A stretch of 29,257 nucleotides of DNA from a virus (taxonomy: Duplodnaviria > Caudoviricetes): IMG/VR virus record IMGVR_UViG_3300010362_000079, positions 1-29,257 of that record; one strand, given 5' to 3'. The stretch's first letter is position 1; the number at the start of each line of letters is the position of its first letter. A model generated the notes under the pieces. That model saw nothing but the letters and a program-made list of their open reading frames with translations. It had not been told where the DNA came from and did not search any database. Positions 8,821 to 28,148 of this stretch are shown here, piece after piece. A program made the translations under genes and the position numbers.

Positions 8821-9268
8821 TGTTCTTGAACACCTTCACGTTGGCTTCTGCAGCCATCGTCCCGAGACTGTCTACCCAGTCCATGAAGGCCGGCAGCACG
8901 TAGGGCTGTGCCTGGGTGCCGGGGTGGTTCACCTTCTTCGCGTACACCCAGGTCCCGCCCACTCGGAACTTGAGCACCCCGTGCGGGTTCCGTGGTCGGA
9001 TCTCGTGTGGCCGGGTGCCGTACTCCACGTACGCCGCGTACGGCGCGGCCAACGGGTTGGGTCCGATGATCACCCGGTCGGTCTCGACCTTGATCGTCAA
9101 CGAGCTGCGCAGCTTCCCGGTCTTCACCGGGACCTTGGCCTCCATCCCGGCCAGGATCTGGTTGGCGCTCTGGACCAGCACGTCATGGGTGGTGATGTCG
9201 GCCTGGGTCGCGGTACGTCGCAGCGCCTCGGCCAGGCGAGTGACATCGGCAGATGCTTCGGCGGGCAT
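8810..9268 (-). CDS. HK97 gp10-like neck / tail-completion protein, 152 aa
   Basis: Characteristic motifs PVKTGKLRSS, YAAYVEYGT, V.HPGT.AQPY..PA. Confidence 0.9.
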   Translation of the reverse strand: MPAEASADVTRLAEALRRTATQADITTHDVLVQSANQILAGMEAKVPVKTGKLRSSLTIKVETDRVIIGPNPLAAPYAAYVEYGTRPHEIRPRNPHGVLKFRVGGTWVYAKKVNHPGTQAQPYVLPAFMDWVDSLGTMAAEANVKVFKNNAK

Positions 9269-10041
9269 CAGGGCAACACTCTCCCTGCCCGCCTAGTCAT
9301 GTTCCCGATCCCGGTCACCATCGCCCGAGCACCTTCCTTGTCCTTGCGCGCGATGTCGATCCTCGACGCACCGGGCTTGCCGAACATCCGGTTCGACCCC
9401 GCGCTGCCGGCGGACTTCCGCCACTGCGCGTAGTTCTCCCGGAACCTCCCGTTCAACGACTGACTGCGCCCCACCGGGTTCCGCTTGACCGAGGCAGACT
9501 CTGCTGCCTCCAGCTTGGGCTGGAGCTTCTTGAAGGCCTTGCTGAAGTCGTTCCGAGACACCTCACGCCGCAGCCGGTGCCGATTCACCAGCCCCCTTCC
9601 TGGGCCGGCAGGGAACCTCACCACCGAGGAGCCACCTCGGCTGTAGCCCGCGAAGTGCCCGGTCTTGCTCGCCCGGATCGGTGGGTTGCTCTCGACCCCG
9701 AACCGCTTGGGCAGCCCCGCAGCCAGCGCCTTGCCCCGAGGGTGCTTGCCCTTCTCCTTGGTGCCGGGGTCGTGGAAGCCCACGTAGGCGTCCTTGTACC
9801 AGTGGCCCTTGCGCGAGACGGCGAAGTCACCCTGGTCAGAGGCGTAGGTCTTGTACCCCTTCCGGTTCAGGTGCTCGACGGTGCGCTTCATCTTCACGTC
9901 CACGTTCTGGGTCTTGCCCTCGGGATCGGTGAACGTGGTCTGCTTGTGCGTCGGATGCACGGGATCCATGACCGAACGCCGCTGGTAGGCCTCACGCTTG
10001 GCGAACTCACCGTGGTCGACACCGAACGCGGAGAGCATCAC
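9268..10041 (-). CDS. Basic SAFG-tag family protein, ~257 aa (start 10041 or 10038)
   Basis: N-terminus MLSAFGVDHGEFAK; K/R/G-rich; overlaps both neighbours (ATGA, TGATG). Confidence 0.85.
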   Translation of the reverse strand: MMLSAFGVDHGEFAKREAYQRRSVMDPVHPTHKQTTFTDPEGKTQNVDVKMKRTVEHLNRKGYKTYASDQGDFAVSRKGHWYKDAYVGFHDPGTKEKGKHPRGKALAAGLPKRFGVESNPPIRASKTGHFAGYSRGGSSVVRFPAGPGRGLVNRHRLRREVSRNDFSKAFKKLQPKLEAAESASVKRNPVGRSQSLNGRFRENYAQWRKSAGSAGSNRMFGKPGASRIDIARKDKEGARAMVTGIGNMTRRAGRVLP

Positions 10042-10526
10042 ATGATCCCGGTGACCTCGAACCGACGAGTGGCCCGCAGCTCGCCGGCCTTGGCTACGGT
10101 CTGGATCTCGTAGCGCTTGCCGTTCATCTGGGAGTCCTCGGGCGCGGAGGTGACCACCACCTCGTCGTAGCGCCGGATGATCGCCGGCTCATCCCAGGGG
10201 ATCGAGAGCTGGGTGGACTGCTGGTAGATCTCGGCATCCCCGACCACCACGGACGCGGCCCCGGCGATCTCCCAGATCCGGCAGGGGCCCTCGTAGACCA
10301 GCTCCCGTGGCCCCTCCGGGGTGAACACCAGGGTGTCCTCGTCGTAGCCATCCGGAGTCGATCCCCGGTAGATCTGGCAGGTGTTGTCCATTACGTCGGT
10401 GGCCCGGTGCCGAACGAACCGCTTCGCTTCGGCACTGATCGGGGTGTGATGGCGGGTCGCCGGTGGCGGGACAGGAGCCACCACCGGCGAGTCGAAGTCG
10501 GCGGAGAACGCCGAGGAGAGGCTCAC
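10038..10526 (-). CDS. Head-to-tail stopper/adaptor (DUF6093-like), 162 aa
   Basis: M..TC.I.R ... VYEGPCRI ... LSIPW ... D.V.VT pattern; position among connector genes. The exact start is uncertain. Confidence 0.8.
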   Translation of the reverse strand: MSLSSAFSADFDSPVVAPVPPPATRHHTPISAEAKRFVRHRATDVMDNTCQIYRGSTPDGYDEDTLVFTPEGPRELVYEGPCRIWEIAGAASVVVGDAEIYQQSTQLSIPWDEPAIIRRYDEVVVTSAPEDSQMNGKRYEIQTVAKAGELRATRRFEVTGIM

Positions 10527-10978
10527 AGCACGCCCTGACTGGGCACGACCACCAGAGCCAGAGTGAGCAGCTGGTTGTTGCTGGGCGTCCCGGTGATCGA
10601 CTCGATGGTCACCGGCACGTCCCGGTAGGCACCCTGGTCCACACTCACCCCGGTGACGTGGCCGTTCATCCGGACCCCGTTCTGCCCGCCCAGGGTGAAC
10701 TGCACGCTGTTCAGCTCATCGGCGAACCCGAAGGGAGTGTTCACCCCGTTGGCCGTGGTCTCGTTGACGTGGACCAGCACCGAGTCGGTGGACCAGCCGG
10801 CATTCATGGCGATCTTCCCGGTCGGCGGGGTCGGGTCGGTGGACCAGTTGAAGGCGTAGGTCTGGAAGATCGTGTGCGCGGCGATGTACAGCTCGGTCAC
10901 GATCGTGCGCAGGTCATCGGCACCGATCTCACCGGTGTCGTTGTCCGGCAGCAGGGCCAGCATCTCGTCCAGGTTCAT
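10523..10978 (-). CDS. Hypothetical, probably virion-associated protein, 151 aa
   Basis: N-terminal LLPDNDTGEIGADDLR helix motif followed by a beta-rich region; tightly packed in the operon. Confidence 0.75.
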   Translation of the reverse strand: MNLDEMLALLPDNDTGEIGADDLRTIVTELYIAAHTIFQTYAFNWSTDPTPPTGKIAMNAGWSTDSVLVHVNETTANGVNTPFGFADELNSVQFTLGGQNGVRMNGHVTGVSVDQGAYRDVPVTIESITGTPSNNQLLTLALVVVPSQGVL

Positions 10979-10981
10979 GAC

Positions 10982-11182
10982 TCAGTGTCCCGTGAGTGCG
11001 CGGATCGGGGCGATCGATCGAGCAGCGATCGTGACCGGGGTGGGGCCGGCACCGGCTCGAACGATGTGGTGGGTGGCGTTGACGGTGCCGGTCTTGAGCT
11101 TCACCAGCTTGCCCTTGGGCTTCACCACCCGCCGGATCACCATCTTGGAGACGGTGTGCTCCACCCCGAACGCGGACCTCAT
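10982..11182 (-). CDS. Small basic SAFG-tag family protein, 66 aa
   Basis: N-terminus MRSAFGVEHTVSK; ATGA overlap with the upstream gene. Confidence 0.8.
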   Translation of the reverse strand: MRSAFGVEHTVSKMVIRRVVKPKGKLVKLKTGTVNATHHIVRAGAGPTPVTIAARSIAPIRALTGH

Positions 11183-11685
11183 GGCTCGACGATCTGTTCC
11201 TGCGGCGGCACACCGAGAGGTGCGACCGACTGGTCCGGCGGGTAGACACCCCCGAACTCCTGAGGCCCGGCCTCGACGTAGTCGTGGATGCCCTTGCCGA
11301 AGGAGAACGGCTTGGTCCCTGGCTGCAGCTGCTCGTCGGGGGCGATTCCGCCCACGTCTGGGTAGCCCCCGACGAGCTTCTGCTTGTACTGCTCTCGCAG
11401 GGAGGCAGCCAGCATCCGGTACTGATCCCCGACCGGACCGAGCGAGACACTCACTCCGTCAGCACTGTAGGACGCCTCGCGTGCGTAACGCGCCGCGATG
11501 GTATCAGCGAGCGTTGCGGCCACGAACTCGTCGGAGTTGTACAGCGGGTACCAGGTGTCGTAGGCCCACTGGATCTCCTCGTCGGTGACCTGCCACTCAC
11601 CGGCGTTGTGTGGGTCGGTGTCTTGGATCAGGAACCGGATGGTGTCGGTCTCCGATGTGCCCGGCCCGGTGTAGGAGTAGGTCAT
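11179..11685 (-). CDS. Head-to-tail adaptor (gp6/gp15-like connector), 168 aa
   Basis: D.IRFLIQDTD...TDEEI motif and S.DGVSVS...Y..LA..LR; position after the capsid genes. Confidence 0.85.
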   Translation of the reverse strand: MTYSYTGPGTSETDTIRFLIQDTDPHNAGEWQVTDEEIQWAYDTWYPLYNSDEFVAATLADTIAARYAREASYSADGVSVSLGPVGDQYRMLAASLREQYKQKLVGGYPDVGGIAPDEQLQPGTKPFSFGKGIHDYVEAGPQEFGGVYPPDQSVAPLGVPPQEQIVEP

Positions 11686-12080
11686 GACGGGAGCTGCTGC
11701 TTCTTCCGGTCCTTGCTCCAGGCCCGGTAGCCCAGCGCTCCACCGGTGCCCAAGGCCAGGGTTCCCGTCAGTCCGGGGCGAGCCTCGAAGAACCGTCCGG
11801 CCACACCGGCACCTCGTCCCATACTCCTGCCGACGCCCTTGATCGAGATGTCCGCGCTGCCGATCCTGTGCAGCACCCCACCGCCACGCTGCTCGAGGGT
11901 CTTCCCCGCGTGCGCGGCCGGCACCTGGGTCCGCATCTGAGCCTGGGTGGGCTTCTTCCCACCCGGGCCCTTGGTCCCCTTCGGCACCGGGATCTTCTTC
12001 GTGGGCGGGGCCGGACGGTTCTTCTTGTCCTTGCTGACCAAGGAGAACTCGCCGTGCTCGACGCCGAAAGCACTGATCAT
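11682..12080 (-). CDS. Basic SAFG-tag family protein with C-terminal Gly-rich hydrophobic segment, 132 aa
   Basis: Likely start ATG 12080 (MISAFGVEHGEFSLVSK), 1 nt after the upstream stop; ends GLTGTLALGTGGALGYRAWSKDRKK. Confidence 0.85.
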   Translation of the reverse strand: MISAFGVEHGEFSLVSKDKKNRPAPPTKKIPVPKGTKGPGGKKPTQAQMRTQVPAAHAGKTLEQRGGGVLHRIGSADISIKGVGRSMGRGAGVAGRFFEARPGLTGTLALGTGGALGYRAWSKDRKKQQLPS

Positions 12081-12081
12081 G

Positions 12082-12420
12082 TCAGTACCCGCGGTTGCGC
12101 CGGTTCCCGTACGCGACACCACCGACGCCGGCTGCGCCGACACCGGCACCACCAGCGGTGATCCCACCGACGGTGCCCGGGCGAGCAGCGGCGAATCGGC
12201 TGACCTTCCGCATCCCCTGACCGGTCCGCTTCAGGGTGCCGTGCATGAACCCGGCTCCCATCCGCTCACTGCCCTGGAACTTGTTGGCCTGCTGGCCAGC
12301 GACCTTGGCCCCGCGCCGGAACAGCCCGCCGACACCGGCACCCAGCCTCTCGGCTCCGCCGGCGATGGAGAACTTCTCGATCTCGTCGTAGCCGTGGTCG
12401 ATTCCGAATGCGCTCTGCAT
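12082..12420 (-). CDS. Basic SAFG-tag family protein with C-terminal glycine-zipper-like segment, 112 aa
   Basis: N-terminus MQSAFGIDHGYDEIEK; ends GGITAGGAGVGAAGVGGVAYGNRRNRGY; TGATG coupling. Confidence 0.85.
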   Translation of the reverse strand: MQSAFGIDHGYDEIEKFSIAGGAERLGAGVGGLFRRGAKVAGQQANKFQGSERMGAGFMHGTLKRTGQGMRKVSRFAAARPGTVGGITAGGAGVGAAGVGGVAYGNRRNRGY

Positions 12421-12926: not shown

Positions 12927-12928
12927 CG

Positions 12929-13363
12929 TTACCTCGTTCTCGGTGTCCGAGGGGCACCAGGCCCACCCATCGGGCGACCGGTCAGACCGGCCACGTTGGG
13001 CTTCTTCGGCCGGGCCTTGATCGCCTGGGGTGCGGGCATCGTCCGGTTGATCGGCTTCGGCTTGCTGGTGTTGAACGCGGCGTTGAACTCGTGGTGGATG
13101 TCCATCTCGCTCGGCATCCGGCTGGCCTTCCTCGCCCCGCGCAGTCCGCGGAGCGGGTTGAAGACCTTGCTGATCCCGTGCTCGATCCCGAAGGCCGAGA
13201 CCGAGTGGTTCTTCTGCATCCGTGCGGTGAGGCCCTGGATCGGGCGAGTCCGCTTCCCGGGCAGGCCGGTGCCGGGGCCGGCAGGACCGACGCGCCGGCC
13301 AGCCATGACCGGCTTCAGGCGACCCGCGTTCTTCGCCTGCAGCAACCCGGTCGGGACGCCCAT
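12929..13363 (-). CDS. Basic Pro/Arg-rich protein with internal SAFG tag, 144 aa
   Basis: Strong SD (GAGGAGG) before ATG 13363; internal SAFGIEHGISK at ~13166-13198. Confidence 0.8.
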   Translation of the reverse strand: MGVPTGLLQAKNAGRLKPVMAGRRVGPAGPGTGLPGKRTRPIQGLTARMQKNHSVSAFGIEHGISKVFNPLRGLRGARKASRMPSEMDIHHEFNAAFNTSKPKPINRTMPAPQAIKARPKKPNVAGLTGRPMGGPGAPRTPRTR

Positions 13364-13375
13364 CGCTCCTCCTCA

Positions 13376-13411: not shown

Positions 13412-13424
13412 AGGGTAGATCTGG

Positions 13425-13490
13425 TCAGGAGACAGCCGAGGCCAGGAAGATGCCCATGTCCTTGGCGATGATCCGCATGTCGTAGGTCAT
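13425..13490 (-). pseudogene. Stranded original 3' end of the major capsid gene (MTYDMRIIAKDMGIFLASAVS*)
   Basis: 66-nt diverged duplicate of 13925..13990, exactly 500 bp away; the first 16 residues are identical. Confidence 0.9.
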
Positions 13491-13921: not shown

Positions 13922-13990
13922 GATCTACGCCACCGCGTTGCTGAGGAAAATCCCCATGTCCTTGGCGATAATGCGCATATCATAAGTCAT
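13491..13990 (-). mobile_element. 500-bp homing-endonuclease cassette carrying a replacement capsid 3' end
   Basis: Deleting 13491..13990 joins ...ATCGAGGGTGAG to ATGACCTACGAC... and restores an in-frame capsid gene of the same length. Confidence 0.85.
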
Positions 13991-14923
13991 CTCACCCTCG
14001 ATGCGGTCCGCCTCGATCCACTCCATCCGGAAGTTCTTCATCCGGACGCCGTAGCCGTTGCCGGCCAGGTATCCGTTCCAGGTGAAGCAGTAGCCGGCAG
14101 CCGGCGTCATCAGCGAGGGCGAGCTCGGGGTGTAGCACAGGAGCGCGCTCTTGCTGTTGGACATGAACTGGTACGTGGCCGCGGCGTCCTGCGCCTTGGC
14201 GTCGTTCAGCTCGGCCACGTTGGTCACCGTCGCGTAGCTGACCAGGATCTTCTCCACGTCGAACAGCGACGCGAGCAGGTCGGTGGTCACCACACCGCGC
14301 TGGGTGTACTTGATGCGGTCGATGATGTCCGGGTGGTTCTTCAGGGCGATGATCGTGTTCGCGCCCAGGACCAACGTGTTGGCCTTGCGGCCTGACTGCT
14401 GCACGAAGTTGGTCTGCAGGTTGGCGAACTGCACGATCGGGTCGGATGCCGCGTTGTCCCACTGCAGGAACTGCCCTGCCGTCGGGGCCGTGGCCACGCC
14501 GGTCAGGTCGGTGCCCCAGAGCCCGGTGCCGAAGAACTTCGCGTTCCAGTCCAGGTCCCGACGGAGCAGGAGCTGGTTGGTCACGAAGTTGGTGGCATCG
14601 GAGTCCAGCCGCCAGTTGGAGTCAGCGTTCGCGCGGACCTGGTCGTCGATGTCCTTGTGGACAGCCCAGACCTCGCAGAAGTACTGCCCGGTGTCGAGCG
14701 TCCAGCCGACTCCGGCCGACTCGGTACCCGGGGCACGCTTCTGCGCGTCCGTCCGACGCCAGTCGGACTTGGAGTACTTCCAGTACAGATCGGACTGCTT
14801 CTGCACCGGCACCCGGGGGAAGACCTTGTCGGCGATGAACGTCGCCTTGTCCTGCATGTAGGCGACGCTGACGTTGGTCAGCGGCACATTGACGTGAAGG
14901 TCGCTCTGGGTGGGGTTAGGCAT
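13925..14923 (-). CDS. Major capsid protein, 332 aa
   Basis: LTNVSVAY...FIADKVFPRVPVQKQSD.Y...RAPGTES N-terminus and L.NHPDIIDRIKY, resembling lambda gpE-like HK97-fold capsids; follows scaffold and cement genes. Confidence 0.93.
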   Translation of the reverse strand: MPNPTQSDLHVNVPLTNVSVAYMQDKATFIADKVFPRVPVQKQSDLYWKYSKSDWRRTDAQKRAPGTESAGVGWTLDTGQYFCEVWAVHKDIDDQVRANADSNWRLDSDATNFVTNQLLLRRDLDWNAKFFGTGLWGTDLTGVATAPTAGQFLQWDNAASDPIVQFANLQTNFVQQSGRKANTLVLGANTIIALKNHPDIIDRIKYTQRGVVTTDLLASLFDVEKILVSYATVTNVAELNDAKAQDAAATYQFMSNSKSALLCYTPSSPSLMTPAAGYCFTWNGYLAGNGYGVRMKNFRMEWIEADRIEGEMTYDMRIIAKDMGIFLSNAVA

Positions 14924-14935
14924 GGCTCACTCCTC

Positions 14936-15337
14936 TCAGAGCGTCAGGAGAACGTTGACGAGTTCCCCGGGGTTGGCGGTGGTGGACAGGGCGATTCCGA
15001 CCTGAGGACCGCTGCCGGTCTTGGCAGCCTGTCCGTCAGCACTGACGAAGATCGTGTCGCCGGCGGTGATCGCGACATCGGAGACCACCTTGGACACGCC
15101 GGCGATGGCGACCGTGGCCGCGTTGCCGGCATTCTGGGGCTTGTTCTGACACACCCCGACTACGGCTCCCGTGGCAGCCGCCAGACCGACCTGGTGCGCC
15201 CCAGTGACCTTCACGAAGTGGTACTGCTTCCCTCCGTGCGGGTCAGGGGAACCGGGCTGGCCCGGGACGCCCGTGTAGACGGCCAAGGTCGCATCCGCGT
15301 TCAGCGTGATAGACCGTAGGCTCTCTTCGTAGGCCAT
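14936..15337 (-). CDS. Capsid cement / decoration protein (DUF2190-like), 133 aa
   Basis: GV.QNKP...G.AATV...GVSKV...AI.AGD...SADGQA...VGIAL..A..GE.V.VLL pattern; immediately before the capsid gene. Confidence 0.85.
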   Translation of the reverse strand: MAYEESLRSITLNADATLAVYTGVPGQPGSPDPHGGKQYHFVKVTGAHQVGLAAATGAVVGVCQNKPQNAGNAATVAIAGVSKVVSDVAITAGDTIFVSADGQAAKTGSGPQVGIALSTTANPGELVNVLLTL

Positions 15338-15355
15338 CGAGCTTCCCTTCCTTCC

Positions 15356-16171
15356 TTACCGGTTCCGCTGTGCGGCCAGGTACTCGTCGTAGGCGTCAGG
15401 GTTCTCCTCGAACACCTGGTTGATCGCCGAGGTCTCGGTGTAGCCCTCCGACTTCCCGAAGGTGTCGTAGGCGTGCTGGGCGACCTGGCTGTAGACATCC
15501 GCGTTGTCGCCACCACCGGTGTAGCCGGTCTCCTCGAAGAGGATCTCGCCGGCCGTCTCCAGGCACTTGGCGATCACCGCGCAGTCGTCGTACGACATGG
15601 TCTCGGCCATCCGGTAGAGCACCGGGCCGAGCTCGTCGGGCGAGACCGGAAGGTTGTACTCGGCGGCCTTGGAGATGTACTCCCGGGTGAGCCGGAGGTC
15701 GCGCTCGGACTTGGCGATCTCGGCCTGCTGGTAGATCTGGCCCTCCAGCTCCTCGACTCGGCCGAGCGCCTTGGCGATCACCGCGTCCCGGTCGTTGTCG
15801 GAGAACGCCTTGGAGAGCTCCTCCATCACGGCCTGGGAGAAGCTGCCGGCCTTCGGAGCCGGCTTCTCGAAGAAGGCACTCTTCCCGACGGTGGCCGGCT
15901 CGAGCTCCGGGTCAGGCTCGTTCTCCTCCTCGCCCTCACCTTCGTCCTCGACGTACTCGTAGGCATTGCCCTCGTCGTCGAAGACAACGTCACCGAACTC
16001 CAGGTCGTCCTCGGAGAGGGGCGTTCCTTCCTGGTCGTAGATCTGGGGCATCTCTTCCTCCTCAGGAGCCCTCTTCGCGATGACGAACCGCGAGAACTGG
16101 TTGGCGGTCTTGTCCACCGTGGAGATCTCGTCGATCTCCATGTCACTGAGCTGGTTCTTCGGTCGTGGCAT
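15356..16171 (-). CDS. Scaffold protein with N-terminal protease-like strand, 271 aa
   Basis: Very acidic and helical, upstream of cement and capsid; N-terminus LSDMEIDEISTVDKTAN; SD GAGGT. Confidence 0.85.
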   Translation of the reverse strand: MPRPKNQLSDMEIDEISTVDKTANQFSRFVIAKRAPEEEEMPQIYDQEGTPLSEDDLEFGDVVFDDEGNAYEYVEDEGEGEEENEPDPELEPATVGKSAFFEKPAPKAGSFSQAVMEELSKAFSDNDRDAVIAKALGRVEELEGQIYQQAEIAKSERDLRLTREYISKAAEYNLPVSPDELGPVLYRMAETMSYDDCAVIAKCLETAGEILFEETGYTGGGDNADVYSQVAQHAYDTFGKSEGYTETSAINQVFEENPDAYDEYLAAQRNR

Positions 16172-19176: not shown

Positions 19177-19198
19177 GTCTTCATGATCTGGCTAGTGG

Positions 19199-21193
19199 CT
19201 AGTCGCTGTGCCGGGGCTTAATCGCCTGGACGATGACCGGGTACTCCAGCCCCTTGGTGTGGATGTTGAACCCGGGGCTGCGCGAGAAGATGCCGTCGAA
19301 GGAGTACTTCTGCGGGTCGTCGGCATCCTGGTAGGTCCGGTCCTGGTGACCCTGGTTGGCCGCGACCACCTCGTTGTGCCAGTCGATCGTGTCCAGGTGC
19401 CACTGGTTCCCGATGAACCGAGCCGAGTAGGTCGCCGTGAACGGGACCCCGCCTTCACTCACCTTCGGCTTGCCGGAAGCATCCAGCAGCTGGGCCTGGA
19501 TCATCGGCGGCTTCACCCGCTGCAAGGCCTCCGGGTTATGACTGTGCTCGTAGGGAGCCTTGCGCACGTAGTAGTCCATCACCTCGCGGATCTGGTCTCT
19601 GGTCAGGACGTACTGCTGTCCGTCCTGGGATCTGGTGAAGATGCCACCGTTGTGGGAACCGACCAGATCGACTTCGCTCTGCACCTGCTCGCGCAGGCCC
19701 TCCTGGACATCCTGGATCGCTGCGCCCTGGGATGAGGTGAACTCCATCCCCTGGGTCAGCTTGACCCGATTGCGCCAGGCCTGGTTGTACATCTCCGGAT
19801 CCACCGGCGCGTAGACGGTGACCCCGGTCTTCACGTTGGTGTCGGTCTTGGTCTTCCTCTTGGTCTTGGGCTGGGTGATCGGCTTGGTCAGACCCCGGAC
19901 CTGATGTTCGGGCACGGTCTCGACGGTGACCTTAGGCCGGACCACCTTGATCGGCTCGGTGCGCACCCGGATCGGCTCTGGTGTCGGTGCCGGCGCTCTG
20001 GTTCTGGCCGGGGCAGCTACTCGTATCGGCGTCCGCTCCAGACCGGTCTTGAAGGTCATCCGCGGCTGCAGCCCCTGAGCGATCACTTGCTCGAACAGCG
20101 CCTGGGTCTTCGGGTCGGTCCTGGTCAGAGTGGTGACCCGGCTCGGGCCCTCGTCCTTCTGACCGGTGAGGATCCGGAACTCGTCGTCCACGTCGATGGT
20201 GCTCACGCCCCGGCGAGAGGCGCTGAACCGACCACCCTCTCCGCGCGGATGCTTCCGGTTGAAGTCGTACAGCTGGTTCCCGCTCAGGTCCTTCTGCACC
20301 TCGTTGATGTCCCGGAACTGGTGCGGCAGCAGGCGTAGCTCACACCGACAATTGGGATGCACGCCCGGGGCCCAGAACTTCCCCTCCGCGGTCTCGAACC
20401 GCTCGGTGATCGGCACCTTGGTCCCGTGCAGCGGACCACACACCGGGCACACCCGCTCGTCCTTGGCGGTCAGCCACATCTTCTCCGCGTGCGCGGGTAG
20501 GTCGCCCTTCTCCAGCCGGTACATCCAGGCCAGCGACTTCCCCTCCTCGCTGACCCGGTGCAGCTCGTGAGCGGTGATCGTTTTGTACCGCTGGTACAGC
20601 GATCGGACGATGTACTTCGCCGCCTCCTTCTTGATCTGCAGCGGAGTCAGGCTGGTGATCTTCCGGTCCCAGACCAGCTGGGCAGCGATGTAGCCACGCA
20701 TCTGCCGGGGGCTCAGACCATAGGCCTCGAACACCTTGTTCGCCGCCGCCCGGGCTGCCATCCGCCGGTTCACGTAGGTGTTGAACCCCTCGACCATCGC
20801 CTCCCGCGCGGTCGCGTGGTAGTACTCGCCCAGCTCATCGGCGTGGTGCTCGGCCAGCGCGTAGAGCGCATCCCGGGAGATGTCGCCGGCGTTGGCCTGG
20901 GCGTACGCCCTGCCGTAGGCCTCGGCCAGCACCGGGATCGAGACCCGGAGGAAGGACGGCTTGATCAGCCGCCAGGCCTCGTCGGCCAGTGCGATCACGG
21001 TGTGCGCGGTGACCTCCCCTGGGCTGGACAACCGCTCTTTCAGCTCGGCCATCATCTGGGTCCGGGAGCCGTGGATGGCCGCAGTCATCGCCTGAGCCGG
21101 CGTCCCCAGGTACCGGCCCTGCTGGGTAACCCCGGTCAGCTCACTGGGTGCGAAGGTGAGCTCGACCGAGGGAGCAACCGGGGTAGTGGTCAT
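19199..21193 (-). CDS. MuF / SPP1 gp7-like minor head protein with C-terminal extension, 664 aa
   Basis: KMWLTAKDERVCPVCGPLHG...PGVHPNCRC at ~20340-20480, followed by ~370 further residues. Confidence 0.88.
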   Translation of the reverse strand: MTTTPVAPSVELTFAPSELTGVTQQGRYLGTPAQAMTAAIHGSRTQMMAELKERLSSPGEVTAHTVIALADEAWRLIKPSFLRVSIPVLAEAYGRAYAQANAGDISRDALYALAEHHADELGEYYHATAREAMVEGFNTYVNRRMAARAAANKVFEAYGLSPRQMRGYIAAQLVWDRKITSLTPLQIKKEAAKYIVRSLYQRYKTITAHELHRVSEEGKSLAWMYRLEKGDLPAHAEKMWLTAKDERVCPVCGPLHGTKVPITERFETAEGKFWAPGVHPNCRCELRLLPHQFRDINEVQKDLSGNQLYDFNRKHPRGEGGRFSASRRGVSTIDVDDEFRILTGQKDEGPSRVTTLTRTDPKTQALFEQVIAQGLQPRMTFKTGLERTPIRVAAPARTRAPAPTPEPIRVRTEPIKVVRPKVTVETVPEHQVRGLTKPITQPKTKRKTKTDTNVKTGVTVYAPVDPEMYNQAWRNRVKLTQGMEFTSSQGAAIQDVQEGLREQVQSEVDLVGSHNGGIFTRSQDGQQYVLTRDQIREVMDYYVRKAPYEHSHNPEALQRVKPPMIQAQLLDASGKPKVSEGGVPFTATYSARFIGNQWHLDTIDWHNEVVAANQGHQDRTYQDADDPQKYSFDGIFSRSPGFNIHTKGLEYPVIVQAIKPRHSD

Positions 21194-24100
21194 GTGTTCC
21201 GCTCAGTGGTGGTGAACAGGCTGTTCGATCCCCGGACGTAGCTCTTCTGATCCTCACTGAGGCCCAGGTGATCCATCTGATCCTCCAGGCTGTCCCACTC
21301 GGTCACCGAGGGGTTGTCCTGCATCCACTGCCCCATCTCGCTGATCCGGCGCAGATCTTCGCGTGCCTTGTCCTTGTCAGGCCCCGACACGTTGGGATCG
21401 GCAATCTGTGTGTTCAGTGAGCCGATCGCGTTGATCACGTTCCGGCCGAAGGCATCGCGTGGACTCTCACCACCGCCAGTGGGCACCGGCACGAGGGTCC
21501 CTCCCTCGCCCTTGATCGGTGTCGGAGCGGCCGGAGCAGCCGGCGCACCTCCAGACGGCGTGCCACCTTCGGGCTTCTTGGGCAGCCCCCCGGTCGAGCC
21601 CGGGGAGGTCGGCTTGACCGGGGTGCCGCTGCTCGGGACCGCCGCCTTCAGCATCTCCTTCAGGTACCGCTGCTTGTGCAGGTTCTCCAGGTGCTGGTCC
21701 ACCTTCTTGTCGCTGGACAGCGTCTCCCGCAGCCGCTCCGGGCTGGGTGCTCCCGGGTGTGTGGATGCGTTCATCCCCAGCACCTTGTCGATCGAGACCG
21801 CCGGGACCTTGCCCCCGGTCTCGTCCACGCCCTTGACCATCCGGCGTAGGAACTGGGTCTGCTCGATCTCGTCCTGCATCGAGATCGCGTCCAGCTGGCT
21901 GGACAGGTCGCTGGTGGTGAACAGCGGGGTCTCCCGGTCGATCCGGGCGATCTCGGCCGTGACCGACGACTCTCGCGCACCCGCGTGGTAGGCGTCGTTC
22001 TTCTCCTTCTTGAAGGTGAACGGAGCGTCCGGCATGGTGCCGGCCAGCTCGGGCTTGTACTCCACCGCGCCGATCGACCCGCGCGCGGCCAGGTACTCCG
22101 CCCAGGCCGGTCCGAACCCGGAGATCCGCCGGGTGAACTGAGCGGCGTTCTGGCTCATGAACGAGTGGAAGGCGTCCTGACTGTCCGGCTTCTTGATCCA
22201 GTTCTGGAAGTCCTGGTCCTTGAAGTGCCACCACTCCGGCGGCTCCTTGTCGGTCCAGTCCAGGTTGGCGGTCCGAGCCACGTTCATCACCGCGATCGCG
22301 CTCTTCTTCGCACCCAGCACCTTGCTCTGCTGCTCGAACGAGTCGCGCAGCCGCTGTGCCTCGGACTCCCGCTCCGAGGTCGAGCTGGTGGTCGAGGTCC
22401 GACCGGTGGTCTCCTCGGTCCCGGTGTCCGGGCGTGCGGCTGCTGCGGCTGCCGCCGTGGCGGCGGCGGTGCCCTTGGTGGCCCCCATCCGGGAGTGCTT
22501 GGACCGGCCGTAGTCAGCCTCGGAGGCCCGGAACTTCTTGTGCTGCTCCTTGCCCTCGGTGCCGTACAACCCGGCCTTGGCCTGCCAGGGACGAACCGCT
22601 CCGGGCTCGACGTAGCCCTTGTCCTCCTCGAACTCCAGGTTCTCGTCGCGCTTGGTCGGGACCGTGCGCACGTCCCTGATGTAGTACGGGAACTGCTCCT
22701 GCAGGCTCTTCAGCGCGGCCTCGTAGCCGATCCCGTTCAGCCGGAACCGGACCTCCTTCATGTCCTTCAGCTCGTTCATGATGTCCTGGCGGTACTGCTT
22801 GGCGTCGTAGGTCCGCTCCAGGCCCATCGCGGCCCGCTGGTCCATGTTGGCGATGATCGCCTCGGCCCGGTCCCGGTCACGACCGTCGATGTCGGGATCC
22901 TCCTTGAACTCCTTCAGCCGGGCCTTGATCTCGTCTCGGACCTGACGCCGGGGAGCCCCGGCCATCTCGGTCTCGACCTCGTTCTCGATCGCCTTGCGCC
23001 AGTGCGGAGGGATCTCCTTGCGCTCGATCTGGCCGGACTGCACCGCGTCCAGCAGGTACTCGTAGCGCCGGGTCATCCGCAGCGCCTTGTCGTTGTACCG
23101 CCGGCCACCGCGGAAGTCCGGAGAGAACTCCATGGTGAACGTGCCCGAGCGCGAGACCACGGTCACCTGGCGTGCGCCGGCCATCAGCCCGGTGTAAACA
23201 TCCTCGCTGGTCAGACCGCCGACCGAGCGATTCCGGATGTACTCCCCACCCTTGAGCTCGGTGAGGTTCTTGAGGTTGAAGGGGAGGTAGTGGTCATCGC
23301 CGTAGCCGACCGCCTGGGAGGCGAGCTGGCCCTTGGAGTTGATGATCACGCCCTCGGACGGCGGGGTGTTGCCGGCACCGAGGTGCAGCCCGTAGAGCTG
23401 CTTCTTCGGGATCTTCATCTTCAGGTACTGCTCGACCACCATGTCGCCCACGGCCCGCTCATCCCAACTGGGAGCACGCACGGCGAGCTGGGCATCGATC
23501 GCTCGCTGCCGAGCCATCTGGGACACCGCCGGCGGTGCTCCGGGAGCACCCACGTCGGGACGGAAGGTGGTCCCGCGACCGGCCTCTCCTCGGCCGTAGA
23601 CCCGGAACTGTCCCAGCTCGTCGGCGATCTTCTCCTCGAGCTCGGGCGTGGGGCGCTTGTGCCCGTACTTCTTGGCGTCCTGGATGTTCTGGGCGTAGAC
23701 CCGGACCAGGGTGGGATCGGGAGCCCGCTCGGTACCGCGGTAGCGGTAGGCGGTCCGACGTGCGCTCGGGCCGATCACCTTCTCCGCCTCGGGCCCGAAC
23801 TCGCCGACGATCTCGGCCATCTTGCCCGCCAGCTGCACCTTCGATCCCGGCGGACCGAGCTGGTTGGCCAGGTTGCCGGCGGCGTAGGTGCGCTCGTACA
23901 GGCGCGCGTTCGCGGCCTTGGTGTCGACATCCCCGGCCTGGGACCACTGGGTGGCGAAGTTCTTGAACCCCTCATCGGTCTTGGACGAGAAGGCCAGGTT
24001 GGCCCGACGAAGCTGGTCTCCGGTCGGCTCCTGCCCCAGCGCCTGCATCAGCCCGAAGGCAGCCCCACCGGCGGTCAAGGTGAGCGGCTTGGCCTCCATC

Positions 24101-25053
24101 GCCACCAGCTGGGTGTCCTCATCCTCGAGCATGGACTTCGGCGGAGAGGTGGAGTTGCTGACCTCCTGGAAGTTGTGCCCGTTGCGGTCCCGCAGGTGGT
24201 AGACGATGTCCACGTTCCCGGTGCCACCGTGCATCCCACTGGCCATGTCCAGGAACTGCGCCACCTGTCGGTACTCGTCCTGATACTGGGCCCGCATGGC
24301 GTTGTCCATGCTCTTGGGCCCGTAGCTGCCGATCACATTCTCCGCAGTCCGCTTGTTCCCGATCGGCTTCTTCATGGTGTGGTGCACCTTGACCATGAAC
24401 CGCCCGGTACCGGGGTCGCGCCGGATGTCGGACTCCTTGAACTGCCAGCCGTAGTACTGCGGGGTGTGGGTGACCTTGCTGATCTCCTCCATCGCCTCGG
24501 CGTACTCCACCGCCCGGTCGTCACCGTTCAGTGCCATCCGAGCCAACGCCTTGGTGATCTCCTGCTCTCGGGTCTCGAGCACATCGTTCAGATGGCGCTG
24601 CAGGGTGCCCAGGTTCTTCTCCACCGTGGTCTCGAAGATCTCCGAGGCGACGATGTGGCAGAACATCCGCGCGCTGGCGTCGTCCATCTTCATGATCAGG
24701 GAGAACGTCTTGTCGGCCGCGGCCTGGTTGAAGTGCGGGTCGTTCGGGCGCTGTGGGGCCATCGCCTTGCTCACCCGTCCCTTCCGCTCCTTCTTCCGCT
24801 TCTCCTTGCGCTCGTCGCGCACGATCTGCTGGACCGGCGGGATCTGGTTGGCCAGGGCACCGGCGGCGGTACCGGCCAGGATCGGCTTCCACAGCCCACC
24901 CTTGGCCTTGCGAACTCGACCACGGCGCTTCTTCTTGTTCGGGTCGTTCTTCCCACCCTTGACGTAGCCCGCGCCCTCCTCGTGCCACTTCCGCGCGATC
25001 TCGGGATGATGGATGTGCATGAAGGCAGCCTGCTTCTTGCTCGCGTACGGCAT
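21190..25053 (-). CDS. Large head-region protein, 1287 aa, with degenerate JAB/MPN-like segment; possible internal or ejected protein
   Basis: Long ORF coupled to portal (TGATG) and MuF (ATGA). It has a basic N-terminus, a RRDPGTGRF motif and a SEGVII...YIRNRSVGGLTSED segment. The function is inferred. Confidence 0.8.
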   Translation of the reverse strand: MPYASKKQAAFMHIHHPEIARKWHEEGAGYVKGGKNDPNKKKRRGRVRKAKGGLWKPILAGTAAGALANQIPPVQQIVRDERKEKRKKERKGRVSKAMAPQRPNDPHFNQAAADKTFSLIMKMDDASARMFCHIVASEIFETTVEKNLGTLQRHLNDVLETREQEITKALARMALNGDDRAVEYAEAMEEISKVTHTPQYYGWQFKESDIRRDPGTGRFMVKVHHTMKKPIGNKRTAENVIGSYGPKSMDNAMRAQYQDEYRQVAQFLDMASGMHGGTGNVDIVYHLRDRNGHNFQEVSNSTSPPKSMLEDEDTQLVAMEAKPLTLTAGGAAFGLMQALGQEPTGDQLRRANLAFSSKTDEGFKNFATQWSQAGDVDTKAANARLYERTYAAGNLANQLGPPGSKVQLAGKMAEIVGEFGPEAEKVIGPSARRTAYRYRGTERAPDPTLVRVYAQNIQDAKKYGHKRPTPELEEKIADELGQFRVYGRGEAGRGTTFRPDVGAPGAPPAVSQMARQRAIDAQLAVRAPSWDERAVGDMVVEQYLKMKIPKKQLYGLHLGAGNTPPSEGVIINSKGQLASQAVGYGDDHYLPFNLKNLTELKGGEYIRNRSVGGLTSEDVYTGLMAGARQVTVVSRSGTFTMEFSPDFRGGRRYNDKALRMTRRYEYLLDAVQSGQIERKEIPPHWRKAIENEVETEMAGAPRRQVRDEIKARLKEFKEDPDIDGRDRDRAEAIIANMDQRAAMGLERTYDAKQYRQDIMNELKDMKEVRFRLNGIGYEAALKSLQEQFPYYIRDVRTVPTKRDENLEFEEDKGYVEPGAVRPWQAKAGLYGTEGKEQHKKFRASEADYGRSKHSRMGATKGTAAATAAAAAAARPDTGTEETTGRTSTTSSTSERESEAQRLRDSFEQQSKVLGAKKSAIAVMNVARTANLDWTDKEPPEWWHFKDQDFQNWIKKPDSQDAFHSFMSQNAAQFTRRISGFGPAWAEYLAARGSIGAVEYKPELAGTMPDAPFTFKKEKNDAYHAGARESSVTAEIARIDRETPLFTTSDLSSQLDAISMQDEIEQTQFLRRMVKGVDETGGKVPAVSIDKVLGMNASTHPGAPSPERLRETLSSDKKVDQHLENLHKQRYLKEMLKAAVPSSGTPVKPTSPGSTGGLPKKPEGGTPSGGAPAAPAAPTPIKGEGGTLVPVPTGGGESPRDAFGRNVINAIGSLNTQIADPNVSGPDKDKAREDLRRISEMGQWMQDNPSVTEWDSLEDQMDHLGLSEDQKSYVRGSNSLFTTTERNT

Positions 25054-26990
25054 CAGCGACCCCTCTTCTTCGGTGGCGGCTTCTTGGCCGTCTTCTTGCT
25101 GGCTGCCTTCTTCGTGGCCTGGTTGACCGGGGCCTTCCGGGCGAACCGGTCCTTGTCACGCAGCGACTGTGCCTGCAGTCTGGCAGCAACGCCGGCCGAG
25201 CGGTCCTTGTCCTTGATCGCTTGGCCCTGGAGCTTCGCGTTCGCCGCAGCGCTCCGGTCCTTCAGCCGCATGGTCTCCTTGGTCCGCTTGTGGTCGCGAC
25301 CGGCCATGGTGTCCTGCAGCCGCATCTTCTCCTTCTCCCGGCCGTGCTGGGCCTGGGCCACCTTCTCCTGGGCGGCCATCATCTGCATCTGCCGGTCGTG
25401 GTCCTTCTGCGCGTTCGGGTCCTCAGGCGGCGGCTGGTTCTGCATGTCGAACTGGTCCTGCTGCATCTGCAGCTCCTGGGCCTGCATCTCCGGCGTGGGC
25501 TGCTGAGACTGCATCTCGGCCTGCTCCGGGGTGTAGCCCTGCGCGGTCATGTCGGCCTTCTGCTTCAGCCCCAGGATCTCCATCTGGTTCTGGCCGAACT
25601 CCATCGCCTGCTGCTGCTGGAGCTGGGCCCGCTTGAAGTCCACGTCCTCCTCGGTCATCTCCGGCAGGCGGGCGATCTCGCGGATGTACTTCTCCAGCTC
25701 CGGGTCCGGGAACCACTGCATGCCGGCACCGGCGGTCGAGGAGATGAACGCGGCCAGCTGGTCCAGCGCAGGAGGATCCACGTTGGTGGGCTCGAACCGA
25801 GGCAGTTCGTCCAGCTTCCAGCCGTTCACGGCGAACAATCTGGGCACGGCGTAGCGGTTCAGGGTGTCCGCGATCCCCTTCGCGATGGCGTTCAGCGCGG
25901 CTCGGAAGATGCCGGTCTTGTCGGTGTGCAGCGAGTACGAGCCGGTGCTCTCGTGACCGACCAGGATGAAGTCGGCCAGCACGCTCATCAGGATCCGCTG
26001 CTCATAGCGCTGGATGATCGAGTTGGTGTCGAACTGCCTGGTCCCACCACTGCTCATCAGCTCGAAGTCGAACAGCGGCTGCTTGGTGTCCGGGTCGTAC
26101 TGGGTGGGGAGCACCAGCCCCTCGTTCTCATCACGGCGTACGCCGCGCACCATCTTCCGGAAGGCGTCCACGGTCTTGGCCTGCTTGGTGCCCTTCTCCG
26201 CGGTCAGGTAGTCGGCGGGCACCTTGCCCACCGGCATGCCGGCCAGGTCGCGCTCGACACCGATCGCCTCGAACTCCTCCAGGCGCTTCTTGAAGTACCA
26301 CGCGCGGTAGGCGTTGCGGAGCAGGCTGTAGCCCTCCGGGTTGCCCTTGGCGATCGCCGTCCGGAAGAGCAGGCTCTTCTCGATCGGGATCACCGTGGTC
26401 TGGTACTTCGGCGGGGCCATCTGGATCATCGCCTTGACCCCGCCGGACTCGTCGAAGGACCAGCGCAGCAGCGTCTCCTGGGCCCGGATCGGCATCTTCC
26501 GCCAGCCGATCAGCCCGTCATCGTGCTTGCTCCGGCGACGCGGATCCTTCTCCCAGGGACCCAGCCGGCGCTTGTAGACGATCTCGTGCCAGCTCCAGCC
26601 GTAGGGCAGCATCGACAGCACCTCGCCGATGAAGCCGTCCCAGGGCTCGTTCATGTCCTCCATGCAGGACTCCAGGAACTCCTGGGCCTGGACGCTCTCC
26701 GGGGTCTGGTCGGCCGGCAGCACCTTCCACTCGACCTCGCGGATCAGCTTGTCGATGGTGAACAGCAACGCTCCGCACATGGAGTCGTTGGCCGACATCT
26801 CCCGGTAGACCTTGACTGCCTTGCGGCCACGGAGAGCGGGGAGGAACTCCTCATCGACGTAGCCGGAGACGCGCTTGACCCCGGTGACGCCGAGCTCCAT
26901 CATCGGGCCGACGTTCTTCGGGATCACGTCCCCGGCGTTGTCTTCATCCCAGGTGGAGATGTCGCCCTGGGGCAGGCGCACATCAGCCAT
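25053..26990 (-). CDS. Portal protein (DUF935 / Mu gp29-like) with Gln-rich and Lys-rich C-terminal extension, 645 aa
   Basis: YREM...D, YGWSWHEIVYK, GNPEGYSLLRNAYRAWYFKK, GVERDLAGMP, GSYSL motifs; downstream of terminase. Confidence 0.93.
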   Translation of the reverse strand: MADVRLPQGDISTWDEDNAGDVIPKNVGPMMELGVTGVKRVSGYVDEEFLPALRGRKAVKVYREMSANDSMCGALLFTIDKLIREVEWKVLPADQTPESVQAQEFLESCMEDMNEPWDGFIGEVLSMLPYGWSWHEIVYKRRLGPWEKDPRRRSKHDDGLIGWRKMPIRAQETLLRWSFDESGGVKAMIQMAPPKYQTTVIPIEKSLLFRTAIAKGNPEGYSLLRNAYRAWYFKKRLEEFEAIGVERDLAGMPVGKVPADYLTAEKGTKQAKTVDAFRKMVRGVRRDENEGLVLPTQYDPDTKQPLFDFELMSSGGTRQFDTNSIIQRYEQRILMSVLADFILVGHESTGSYSLHTDKTGIFRAALNAIAKGIADTLNRYAVPRLFAVNGWKLDELPRFEPTNVDPPALDQLAAFISSTAGAGMQWFPDPELEKYIREIARLPEMTEEDVDFKRAQLQQQQAMEFGQNQMEILGLKQKADMTAQGYTPEQAEMQSQQPTPEMQAQELQMQQDQFDMQNQPPPEDPNAQKDHDRQMQMMAAQEKVAQAQHGREKEKMRLQDTMAGRDHKRTKETMRLKDRSAAANAKLQGQAIKDKDRSAGVAARLQAQSLRDKDRFARKAPVNQATKKAASKKTAKKPPPKKRGR

Positions 26991-26993
26991 GCA

Positions 26994-27353
26994 TTACCCC
27001 TGACGCTTGTGGCCGTATGCCGCAGCCCCGGCTCCGCCGGCGGTGACCGCGGCGGCACCGCCACCCACGGTGTACTTCCCGGCGGTGGTCAGTCCGCCAC
27101 CGAGGGTGCTCTTGTGACTGATCGGCATGCCATGCACGGTGCCACCACCCTTCATGGTGACCTTCTCCTTCAGGAAGGTGCCGCCCTTGCGCCGGGTCGC
27201 GGTGAGGTGTGCGCCCTTGACCTTCTCGCCGCCCATGGCCTCCGAGAGGAATGCCTTGGCTTGCTTCTTCGGGGCGTGTTCGACGACCCTCGCCCCGAAC
27301 CCGGGGACACCCTTGCTGATCTCACCGTGGTCTACTCCGAACGCGCTGATCAT
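26994..27353 (-). CDS. Basic SAFG-tag family protein with C-terminal Gly/Ala hydrophobic segment, 119 aa
   Basis: N-terminus MISAFGVDHGEISK; ends VGGGAAAVTAGGAGAAAYGHKRQG. Confidence 0.85.
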   Translation of the reverse strand: MISAFGVDHGEISKGVPGFGARVVEHAPKKQAKAFLSEAMGGEKVKGAHLTATRRKGGTFLKEKVTMKGGGTVHGMPISHKSTLGGGLTTAGKYTVGGGAAAVTAGGAGAAAYGHKRQG

Positions 27354-27368
27354 GTCTCCAGTCTCCTG

Positions 27369-28148
27369 TCACTGTCCCGTCATGGCCCGGCCCGGCTTGA
27401 CGCCCTTCCTCCGCATCTGGTCCTGCAGATCGGCGTAGGCCCCGTAGGCCTTCTTCGCCCGGTTCCCCTGGCTCAACCGGTAGTGCGGGCTGTTCGCATC
27501 GATCGCCCGGGCGGTGCCGGCGAGGACACGCTGATTGGTGAGCTTCTTCCGGGAGACCTTCAGCTTCGACTGCTTGTGCTCCTTGGGCGTGAAGAACGGC
27601 TTCTTCGCTCCCTTCTTCTGCGCCTGTCGCACCGCTCGAGCGCCCATCCCGTACGCCGAGCTGTCCACCGGGTGCGTGGAGTAGTGGCCGAAGGAGTTGT
27701 AGTCAGCTCGGGCTTCCTCCCGCATCAGCTTCTCCGGATCCCTCATGATCTGGGCGTGCAGGCGGTAGCTGCTCCGCTTCACGTTCGCGTGCTGGGCCTC
27801 GTGCGCGGTCACGTAGGGGATCGACTTCTTCGATGCCTGGCCACTCACATACGAGCGCCCCTGCTTCGCGGAGCCGAGCCGAATGGTCCCGCCACTCCCC
27901 TGATGTCCCCTCATCATCGGGTTGTGCCTGACTCCCTCCGGGAACCTCGGGGTCCCGACTACTTCCCGGTGCATCCTGGTCGTCGCGAGGAATCTCTTGT
28001 CACCTTCGCTCACTCCTCGGGCAGCCTTGTACTGGCCACCGACTGCCACCTTCCGGGCCTGCTTCGCGCTCAGATCCACCGCCCGGACGAACTTGCCGTT
28101 GACGAACGACTTCGAGATCCCGTGCTCGACACCGAAGGCGGATCGCAT
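27369..28148 (-). CDS. Basic SAFG-tag family protein with HExxH zinc-metallopeptidase-like motif, 259 aa
   Basis: N-terminus MRSAFGVEHGISK; VTAHEAQHA followed ~20 residues later by REEARAD. Confidence 0.8.
   Translation of the reverse strand: MRSAFGVEHGISKSFVNGKFVRAVDLSAKQARKVAVGGQYKAARGVSEGDKRFLATTRMHREVVGTPRFPEGVRHNPMMRGHQGSGGTIRLGSAKQGRSYVSGQASKKSIPYVTAHEAQHANVKRSSYRLHAQIMRDPEKLMREEARADYNSFGHYSTHPVDSSAYGMGARAVRQAQKKGAKKPFFTPKEHKQSKLKVSRKKLTNQRVLAGTARAIDANSPHYRLSQGNRAKKAYGAYADLQDQMRRKGVKPGRAMTGQ

Follow-up and report, generated by a model that had tools for sequence, protein, structure and literature searches.

Why do eight proteins encoded among the head genes of one uncultured soil phage carry the same seven residues, and what could such a peptide do? 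A six-frame scan of the window, the whole 29,257-nt stretch of viral DNA analysed here, revealed exactly eight copies of SAFG[VI][DE]H, all in frame on the minus (coding) strand and all those listed by the initial annotation. The tag serine codons were located at 28142, 27347, 16252, 13198, 12414, 12074, 11176, and 10032, and no extra copy appeared in the six frames when one mismatch was allowed. The chance expectation for the tag was 1.4e-4 per window, and the 4-mer SAFG was found in eight called proteins, compared with 3-6 proteins for the most-shared 4-mer across 200 shuffles. The eight copies are real and far above chance; a literature search on this tag returned no paper. When the pattern was searched across phage and metagenome proteins, as had been suggested, 241 of 241 matches in 80 loci kept the reading frame and lay on the capsid strand, and the cargo attached to them was variable. 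A relic at the DNA level, left when gene starts were duplicated or by a linker for recombination, and without function as a peptide, would fit the mostly N-terminal copies and the shuffling of modules at these joints. This origin is already largely refuted and extremely improbable: the tag serine was encoded by TCN in five copies and by AGY in three, 85 of 168 same-residue codon pairs between tags differed synonymously, C-terminal and internal copies were present, and frame and strand were kept throughout. The claim that selection acts on the peptide and not on the DNA was therefore upheld.

Seven of the eight tagged genes overlapped a neighbour or lay within 2 nt of it, in agreement with their described coupling to the head genes among which they sit; the remaining gene, starting at 28148, was spaced 26 and 15 nt from its neighbours. 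This gene encodes a 259-aa protein (27369..28148; minus strand, as for every feature below) with an N-terminal SAFGVEH (28122..28142) followed by an ISK site, and an HExxH motif with a downstream Glu helix. The adjacent basic 119-aa protein (26994..27353; N-terminal SAFGVDH, 27327..27347) contains a Gly/Ala run and, with the tag masked, had no homolog among the fetched loci. The polyprotein, whose corrected start at 17932 gives 570 aa (16220..17932), consists of basic Gly/Ala modules split by Lys sites and ends in a C-terminal SAFGVDH after YEK (16232..16252); it contains three acidic spacers, the first between polyprotein Lys sites (Y-x-G-E-hydrophobic-S/G-K; 17441..17476) and the others at 17024..17065 and 16655..16690, and, alone among the cargo proteins, it was widely conserved (77 loci). 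In the 144-aa protein (12929..13363), an internal SAFGIEH (13178..13198) is located between two basic modules, and the relative in locus L073 stops just past the tag. The other four carriers all have N-terminal tags: a Gly-rich basic 112-aa protein (12082..12420; SAFGIDH, 12394..12414), a protein of 132 aa in the corrected gene model (11682..12080; SAFGVEH, 12054..12074), a 66-aa protein (10982..11182; SAFGVEH, 11156..11176), and a basic 256-aa protein with one homolog cluster only (9268..10038; SAFGVDH, 10012..10032).

As first proposed, the carriers were otherwise unrelated and K/R-rich, since no pair of the eight aligned at E<0.05 with the tag masked and K+R ranged from 14 to 21% (GC3 0.81-0.88). 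Among 165 tagged proteins, 99% were net basic, and the mature piece had a median of 93 aa and a net charge of +13. A Pfam scan of 251 tagged ORFs gave four matches above the cut-off, with MuF as the sole structural family; among the cargo tagged in relatives were a GNAT and a protein weakly matching an ADP-ribosyltransferase. The cargo is mostly basic Gly/Ala peptide with enzyme-like proteins as a minority, so that the notion of a “set of effectors” held for this minority and failed for most of the cargo. A role of the Gly/Ala runs as a membrane channel was also considered and was not favoured, because hydrophobic stretches were few (a 19-residue Kyte-Doolittle mean above 1.6 in 1 of 99 mature short cargo proteins and above 1.2 in 22) and the glycine-zipper Pfam matches were all under the cut-off.

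The 259-aa protein is likely a zincin-like metallopeptidase, a candidate assignment based on its motif and its predicted structure. Its HExxH motif (residues 116-120, 27789..27803) was conserved in 23 of 23 family members and was placed by the model within a helix of residues 110-121, preceded by strands at 85-91 and 98-104. E144/E145, conserved at least 90%, were located on the model helix 138-153. The same order, an HExxH helix and then a Glu helix, is found in the zincin-like MPTase of phage polyvalent proteins, as presented in the cited parts of PMC5512222. No match was obtained with Pfam or PHROG profiles, MPTase Pfam included, nor with Foldseek at E<=0.001. The VIA fold search gave a best Z of 3.4, with zincins only at Z 2.3-2.7 and none significant, and the Atlas neighbours were zincin families, but below the Atlas bar.

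A second shared element was found beside the tag. In the window, a hydrophobic-x-Lys site ended 4-8 residues past the tag His in seven copies, and YEK was located on the upstream side of the C-terminal copy; the sites themselves were as annotated, whereas the spacing had been given as 3-8. Such a site was present within 10 residues of 119 of 120 N-terminal tags, compared with 9.7% elsewhere in the same proteins. An IMG/VR pattern scan in which the Lys site was not required gave matches in frame in 144 of 144 loci, and the site was alongside 124 of 125 unique matches. The P3 position was V, I, L, or F for 471 of 621 scaffold lysines (76%; background 21%), for 55 of 805 mature cargo lysines (7%; background 16%), and for 26% of capsid lysines: the site is enriched in the scaffold and depleted in the cargo. 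We infer from these patterns that the Lys sites are the cut sites of the XkdF-type protease encoded in the same block; a literature search for an XkdF-type protease cutting after Lys found no paper. The close pairing of tag and site, together with the tagless relatives that retain both cargo and Lys sites, might also suggest that the tag is an exosite motif by which the protease cuts faster at the adjacent Lys, while the cargo enters by charge or by its own modules. We consider this unlikely, as the tag occurred on either side of the site (spacing 3-10 residues downstream or 0-8 upstream) and was absent at most Lys sites of the scaffold and the polyprotein.

The neighbouring genes form a head module. 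The terminase large subunit (28175..29257; weak PF17289) is cut by the contig end, and the portal (25053..26990; PF06074), a 1287-aa protein of no known family with three Lys sites among its first 200 residues (21190..25053), a MuF-domain minor head protein (19199..21193) that is itself tagged in the relative L112, the major capsid protein (13925..14923; phrog_1005), and a likely capsid cement or decoration protein (14936..15337; weak PF22758, under the cut-off) were also identified. The XkdF-type prohead protease precursor (17932..19176) contains an N-terminal leader, a Lys site, basic Gly/Ala modules, a further Lys site, and the PF14550 domain (68.1 bits against a cut-off of 24), of which H69 and S130 were invariant across 36 sequences. 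The putative scaffold (15356..16171) has a net charge of -41 and seven conserved hydrophobic-x-Lys sites. Its N-terminal E-I-S-x-V-D strand (16073..16150) was missing from the protease gene in 47 of 47 loci. Behind a conserved internal start, residues 41-76 form a small folded β-domain (15944..16051), a candidate docking site; every cargo-bearing phage examined had this domain, compared with 0 of 13 distant phages without cargo. Solved-structure searches with profiles of the protease and the β-domain gave nothing significant, the scaffold fold search matched mostly uncharacterised phage proteins, and the Atlas look-up of the β-domain (0.76) was uninformative.

Cargo-like modules were also found within these head proteins. 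Of 102 full-length scaffolds representing the wider family, 67 contained a basic Gly/Ala cargo-type insert between Lys sites. One insert proved homologous to modules that are tagged and encoded on their own (44% over 90 aa, E 2e-12; shuffled or reversed controls, 0 of 67); at the thresholds applied, it was the only one of the 67 to align to a tagged module, and the remaining likeness was one of composition. When the fetched loci were compared with 404 tagged modules by BLAST at E<1e-3, none of the 77 scaffolds and none of the 47 protease precursors matched (best 0.002). Tagged phages carried one module inside the protease precursor, and in tagless ones this module was free-standing. The presence of cargo-type modules inside scaffolds, between Lys sites, points to the prohead interior as their destination. 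This location, and the same module type in protease precursors, argue against a role of the tag as a handle for chaperones or degradation, by which strongly basic late proteins would do no harm in the cytoplasm and would stay unpackaged. The extreme basicity of the cargo beside a very acidic scaffold would suit such a handle, as would the location of some tagged genes outside the head block, next to tail-fibre-like genes, but the depletion of Lys sites in the mature cargo is in line with its being exposed to the head protease, and we regard this role as highly unlikely.

A K-SAFF element of the scaffold (15869..15883) occupies the position at which relatives have a cargo-type module inserted. 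It reads K-SAFF in the subclade of the window and K-SAFG in a subclade with His-less tags; of the 102 scaffolds of the wider family, only 2 contained K-SAF[FG], and several tag-bearing phages lacked it. An apparent S-to-N covariation of tag and scaffold in L062 and L063 was dropped, as L269 and L060 pair N-type tags with K-SF scaffolds. This element might offer the coat a second contact if the tag, in the manner of encapsulin targeting peptides, which bind a pocket on the interior of the shell protein, attached to the inside of the HK97-fold coat protein, or to the portal, instead of the scaffold. The coat contact of scaffolds is usually a C-terminal helix, and the tag is unlike the conserved C-terminal helix of this scaffold; moreover, we know of no encapsulin peptides for which flanking cut sites are normal. 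We therefore hold coat binding to be quite unlikely, even if a short, terminal, position-flexible peptide suits it. In the cited parts of PMC13185644, encapsulins load cargo through C-terminal peptides or N-terminal domains. Their targeting peptides resemble the tag as short terminal addresses directed to a shell of HK97 fold; here the shell is a phage prohead with scaffold and protease, and the tag stands beside likely cut sites.

The window phage is long-tailed, as its tail tube and tape measure matched Pfam families, and the tape-measure C-terminus matched mostly actinophages, so that an actinobacterial host is likely and the annotation as an actinobacterial siphovirus gained support. The closest cultured phages reached a capsid identity of only 40-48%. 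The tag was present in 62 of 66 loci at a capsid identity of at least 56% and in 0 of 13 below 56%, and is a marker of one phage clade. In cellular genomes it occurs at chance level only: the GTDB pattern search returned 11 matches against 4-9 expected, one of them in frame, with no Lys site and no head gene, and it revealed neither a prophage nor a host genome. Soil DNA contigs cover the region, joints at low likeness being left out, and none of the sequencing runs listed with the region was from RNA. Among 170 unique tags from the 80 loci, 120 were N-terminal, 32 C-terminal, 11 classed as internal (five of which resemble N-terminal tags with a longer leader), and seven ambiguous; tag matches near a core gene were co-oriented with it in 181 of 181 cases. 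The tag is no absolute requirement: the β-domain and basic Lys-site polyproteins persist without it in a nested subclade (L056, L057, L290, and L292, also L279 and L291), and three phages that do bear tags (L269, L271, and L287) have none on the core polyprotein. The tag is thus not the sole route, and the β-domain tracks the cargo, not the tag. Tag and β-domain have their origin in the same clade, which makes their joint occurrence a single event; the subclade and the single event were read from a quick tree.

By analogy, the tag is most likely a cleavable prohead-loading signal similar to the T4 capsid-targeting sequence but position-independent. To our knowledge, the two have no sequence likeness. 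The T4 signal, as described in the cited parts of PMC7411985, is an N-terminal peptide of 10-20 aa that attaches to the core of the prohead and is cleaved off by gp21. In both systems a short conserved peptide is carried by diverse, variable proteins (IPI-III and Alt in T4; PMC7411985, PMC3012670, in part), a neighbouring head-protease-type site is common to cargo and scaffold, and basic internal proteins are joined by an occasional enzyme; in T4, internal-protein lysines touch DNA phosphates (PMC3012670, in part). The differences are that the T4 signal is strictly N-terminal, whereas the tag may be N-terminal, C-terminal (32/170), or internal; that gp21-type proteases cut after Glu, whereas the recurrent site here ends in Lys, the presumed P1, beside a PF14550 XkdF protease; and that this phage is long-tailed, about 80 kb, with cargo also in cis inside scaffold and protease. 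In SPN3US and giant phages, one three-residue motif (A-x-E, cut by gp245) likewise processes many head proteins, ejection proteins among them, and both N- and C-terminal propeptides were proposed to target into the prohead, but the propeptides span 20-254 aa, the protease family and genome size differ, and no single common 7-mer is described in the cited parts of PMC10052503 and PMC7411985. Phage polyvalent proteins share the MuF link and the same enzyme classes (zincin-like MPTase, ART, and GNAT) as the tagged cargo, yet form one large polypeptide, whereas the domains here are mostly separate small tagged genes (PMC5512222, in part).

We propose, with a probability of roughly 0.6, that the tag docks the eight proteins on the acidic scaffold core and that the XkdF-type protease cuts the Lys sites, leaving basic peptides and a few likely enzymes in the head. 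The Lys-site statistics, the scaffold modules, and the co-orientation support the original suggestion of a portable, cleavable peptide signal tied to an XkdF-protease head module. The 36-residue β-domain would be the best candidate receptor, and the tag may replace covalent fusion to the scaffold as the entry route. After cutting inside the prohead, the basic peptides would bind and neutralise the packaged DNA, while the enzyme-like minority (HExxH, GNAT, and ADP-ribosyltransferase-like) may act in the head or leave with the DNA. A bolder version, which we regard as doubtful, is a plug-and-play injection code of an HK97-type long-tailed lineage, in which the scaffold domain reads the orientation-independent tag and the product of any newly acquired gene (metallopeptidase, acetyltransferase, ADP-ribosyltransferase, or hundreds of basic peptides) can join the head contents; a Lys protease completed by the scaffold would set these products free, and on ejection into the host they would form a rapidly changing arsenal against its defences. 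The defined capsid-loading peptides of tailed phages that we know of are mainly those of T4; if the proposal is true, the tag would be a second one, unrelated to that of T4, position-independent, and likely from an actinobacterial siphophage. The binding partner of a capsid-targeting peptide, a long-open question, would become testable with a named candidate receptor. The finding would also yield the cut specificity of XkdF-type proteases, supply a short tag for putting proteins into phage heads, and give a search handle for virion-carried phage enzymes missed by profiles.

The window was a single complete contig of 29,257 bases (G+C 66%), and by Pfam and PHROG matches its minus strand was a tailed-phage late operon with genes for terminase, portal (PF06074), a 1287-aa protein of unknown function, MuF, an XkdF-type protease (PF14550), a scaffold-like protein, a likely cement protein, the major capsid protein (phrog_1005), connectors, tail tube and tape measure. 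The tape measure protein (538-6813, minus strand) contained 2091 residues with an M23 peptidase domain. A homing-endonuclease-like gene (phrog_5046; 13487-13921, minus strand) lay directly after the capsid gene, and soil-run contigs joined across it. All eight copies of the SAFG[VI][DE]H tag were confirmed where the initial annotation had placed them, with a chance expectation of 1.4e-4, and no other copy was found with one mismatch allowed. The varied codon usage it described was also observed (85 of 168 comparable pairs differed synonymously, and both serine codon families were used), and no two of the eight tagged proteins aligned once the tags were masked.

Related IMG/VR loci were collected by capsid protein (79 loci; the best 80 of 106 kept). 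The tag was found in 62 of 66 loci with capsid identity of at least 56% and in none of the 13 with identity of 50% or less; the four tagless loci among the 66 were two short contigs and the related loci L056 and L057. All 241 tag matches were on the capsid strand. A quick capsid tree had one well-supported clade of 58 rows, of which 54 bore the tag, and 10 outgroup rows, all tagless; the four tagless clade rows formed one nested subclade, in which the tag was dispensable. The core polyprotein also lacked the tag in three tag-bearing phages. A degenerate DNA scan of the collection for M-x-tag-G, covering 62 of 64 parts and with no lysine site in its pattern, returned at least 144 distinct loci. 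Among the matches listed, the frame was kept in 144 of 144 loci, the adjoining hydrophobic-x-Lys site was present in 124 of the 125 unique tag matches, and a core virion gene accompanied the tag in the DNA fetched for 100 of 144 loci; the other 44 were 38 fragments of at most 1.1 kb and six stretches of late region, of which five lay on contigs already giving capsid loci. Of the 17 loci from a scan for a His-less variant, 16 belonged to head modules and one was a chance match. In 185,579 cellular genomes, 11 pattern matches were obtained versus 4-9 expected, and none was tag-like. On these counts from IMG/VR and the cellular genomes, the tag was not equally common outside structural modules, the finding that the initial annotation had said would refute its reading. 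Tagged genes were also seen outside the head block in L104-L107 and L143, with a helix-turn-helix gene on one side and tail-fibre-like genes on the other, and DAFG-type variants were present in L272, L273, and L281 of the His-less subclade. The clade had no cultured member (nearest cultured capsid, 48% identity), and a host was suggested solely by tape-measure matches. A search of the main text of largely openly available papers gave unrelated papers and no description of the motif and, including the part of PMC13185644 covered, nothing on capsid targeting or cargo loading in this clade.

Of the 170 unique tag copies, 120 stood at the N-terminus, 32 at the C-terminus, and 11 internally, with 7 ambiguous; one 827-aa protein was tagged at both ends. 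A hydrophobic-x-Lys site followed within 10 residues of 119 of the 120 N-terminal tags, compared with 9.7% elsewhere in the same proteins; for C-terminal tags the lysine was upstream, most commonly by four residues. The share of lysines in this context was 76% in the scaffold, 26% in the capsid, and 7% in mature cargo, the piece that a cut at the site would leave. These sites would be cut by the XkdF-type protease. For some jumbo phages, the part of PMC7824862 covered names XkdF as the probable peptidase of the head, and no report of lysine specificity for XkdF-type proteases was found in the literature, PMC10052503 and PMC7824862 being covered in part. In the 570-aa polyprotein (16220-17932, minus strand), three acidic Y-x-G-E-hydrophobic-S/G-K spacers lay between lysine sites (16655-17476, minus strand); these spacers end much like the tag's GEISK tail and may act as a second signal.

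In 47 of 47 loci the protease gene (17932-19176, minus strand) had no copy of a conserved E-I-S-x-V-D strand with which the scaffold gene, 1.76 kb downstream, opened (16073-16150, minus strand); a long form of the scaffold likely completes the protease in trans. A start codon and ribosome-binding-like sequence preceded the next scaffold domain in 63 of 64 cases; local Glu codons form such a sequence easily, yet Val was GTG in 15 of 16. The leader of the protease precursor (19108-19176, minus strand), L-F/Y-x-G-G and then ELISK, was kept in tagged and tagless phages, was missing from distant short proteases, and is possibly a third docking peptide. The scaffold β-domain (residues 41-76; 15944-16051, minus strand) was predicted with a pLDDT of about 82. 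A profile search with it against 1.84 billion representatives gave 170 clusters, and the 150 listed included 102 full-length scaffolds. Because the domain was present in all cargo-bearing phages examined and in none of 13 distant phages, it is the best receptor candidate for the tag; this co-occurrence amounts to a single evolutionary event, and tagless phages retain the domain.

Of the new evidence on destination, the strongest was the cargo-type modules found within prohead-core proteins. A basic Gly/Ala module was present in 67 of the 102 full-length scaffolds (among the clusters listed), in the slot that held K-SAFF alone in the window's own scaffold (15869-15883). One insert shared homology with ten stand-alone modules that carry the tag (E 2e-12); shuffled or reversed controls gave no match, and the remaining 66 resembled cargo in composition only. 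Another module lay within the protease precursor in tagged phages and was a separate gene in tagless ones. MuF itself bore the tag in L112, and the scaffold of the His-less subclade read K-SAFG, although K-SAF[FG] was rare in the wider set (2 of 102 among the clusters listed). The embedded modules, tagged MuF, and K-SAFG scaffold can thus be read as two routes to one place, in which cargo would be fused to the scaffold or protease or would dock on the core by its tag.

Other shared motifs were seen in these proteins. An M-P-Y-x-S-x-x-Q module, another portable one, was at the N-terminus of the 1287-aa protein (from 25053 downward) and opened basic polyproteins in L038:1825 and L286:8357. R/H-[DP]-x-G-R-F motifs occurred in the 1287-aa protein (21190-25053, minus strand) and MuF (19199-21193, minus strand), with similar motifs after the tag in cargos of L112, L238, and L249 and in the scaffold of the distant L072. 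A stretch of the 1287-aa protein (about 23059-23559, minus strand), which by eye we take to resemble a degenerate JAB/RadC-type domain, had no PHROG match.

The 168 tagged ORFs fell into 81 sequence families. Among 165 tagged representatives, 99% were net basic, versus 5% of 584 untagged genes in the same loci, and 64% had an uncharged Gly/Ala run. Mature short cargo had a median of 93 residues and a net charge of +13, and did not fit classical transmembrane peptides. Only the 570-aa polyprotein was conserved widely among the window's cargos (77 loci), and two others had no homolog in the fetched loci. When 251 tagged ORFs (150 of 157, plus 101) were scanned, four passed the Pfam cut-off: DUF7218, DUF6321, MuF, and a GNAT acetyltransferase (L141:2375-2728, minus strand). 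The DUF6321 cargo (L109:4225-4818, minus strand) strongly matched several PHROGs of unknown function and is a module that other phage groups also have. A tagged ADP-ribosyltransferase-like domain (L273:8253-9560, plus strand) weakly matched an RNA-polymerase ADP-ribosylase family (E 0.014). The HExxH of the 259-aa cargo (27369-28148, minus strand) was present in each of 23 relatives, and each bore its tag N-terminally, with retrieval biased by a second search profile that included the tag. Two helices further on, a conserved Glu, seen in the alignment and predicted structure, agreed with the zincin description in the part of PMC5512222 covered; profile and fold searches confirmed no family. 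The protein is a putative peptidase matching that description.

The tag system is real and specific; its mechanism, loading into the prohead with cutting at the lysine sites, is inferred, and we put that reading at roughly 60%. The tag would work like the T4 capsid-targeting sequence as described in the covered part of PMC7411985, but differs from it in position and protease type. The initial annotation regarded the tagged proteins as effectors, which suits the enzyme-like minority (HExxH, GNAT) and not the bulk, given how few passed the Pfam cut-off. From the basic composition and few enzyme families, most cargo is likely DNA-binding filler, as the lysines of T4 internal proteins likewise contact DNA (PMC3012670, in the part covered), and a minority likely acts as enzymes.
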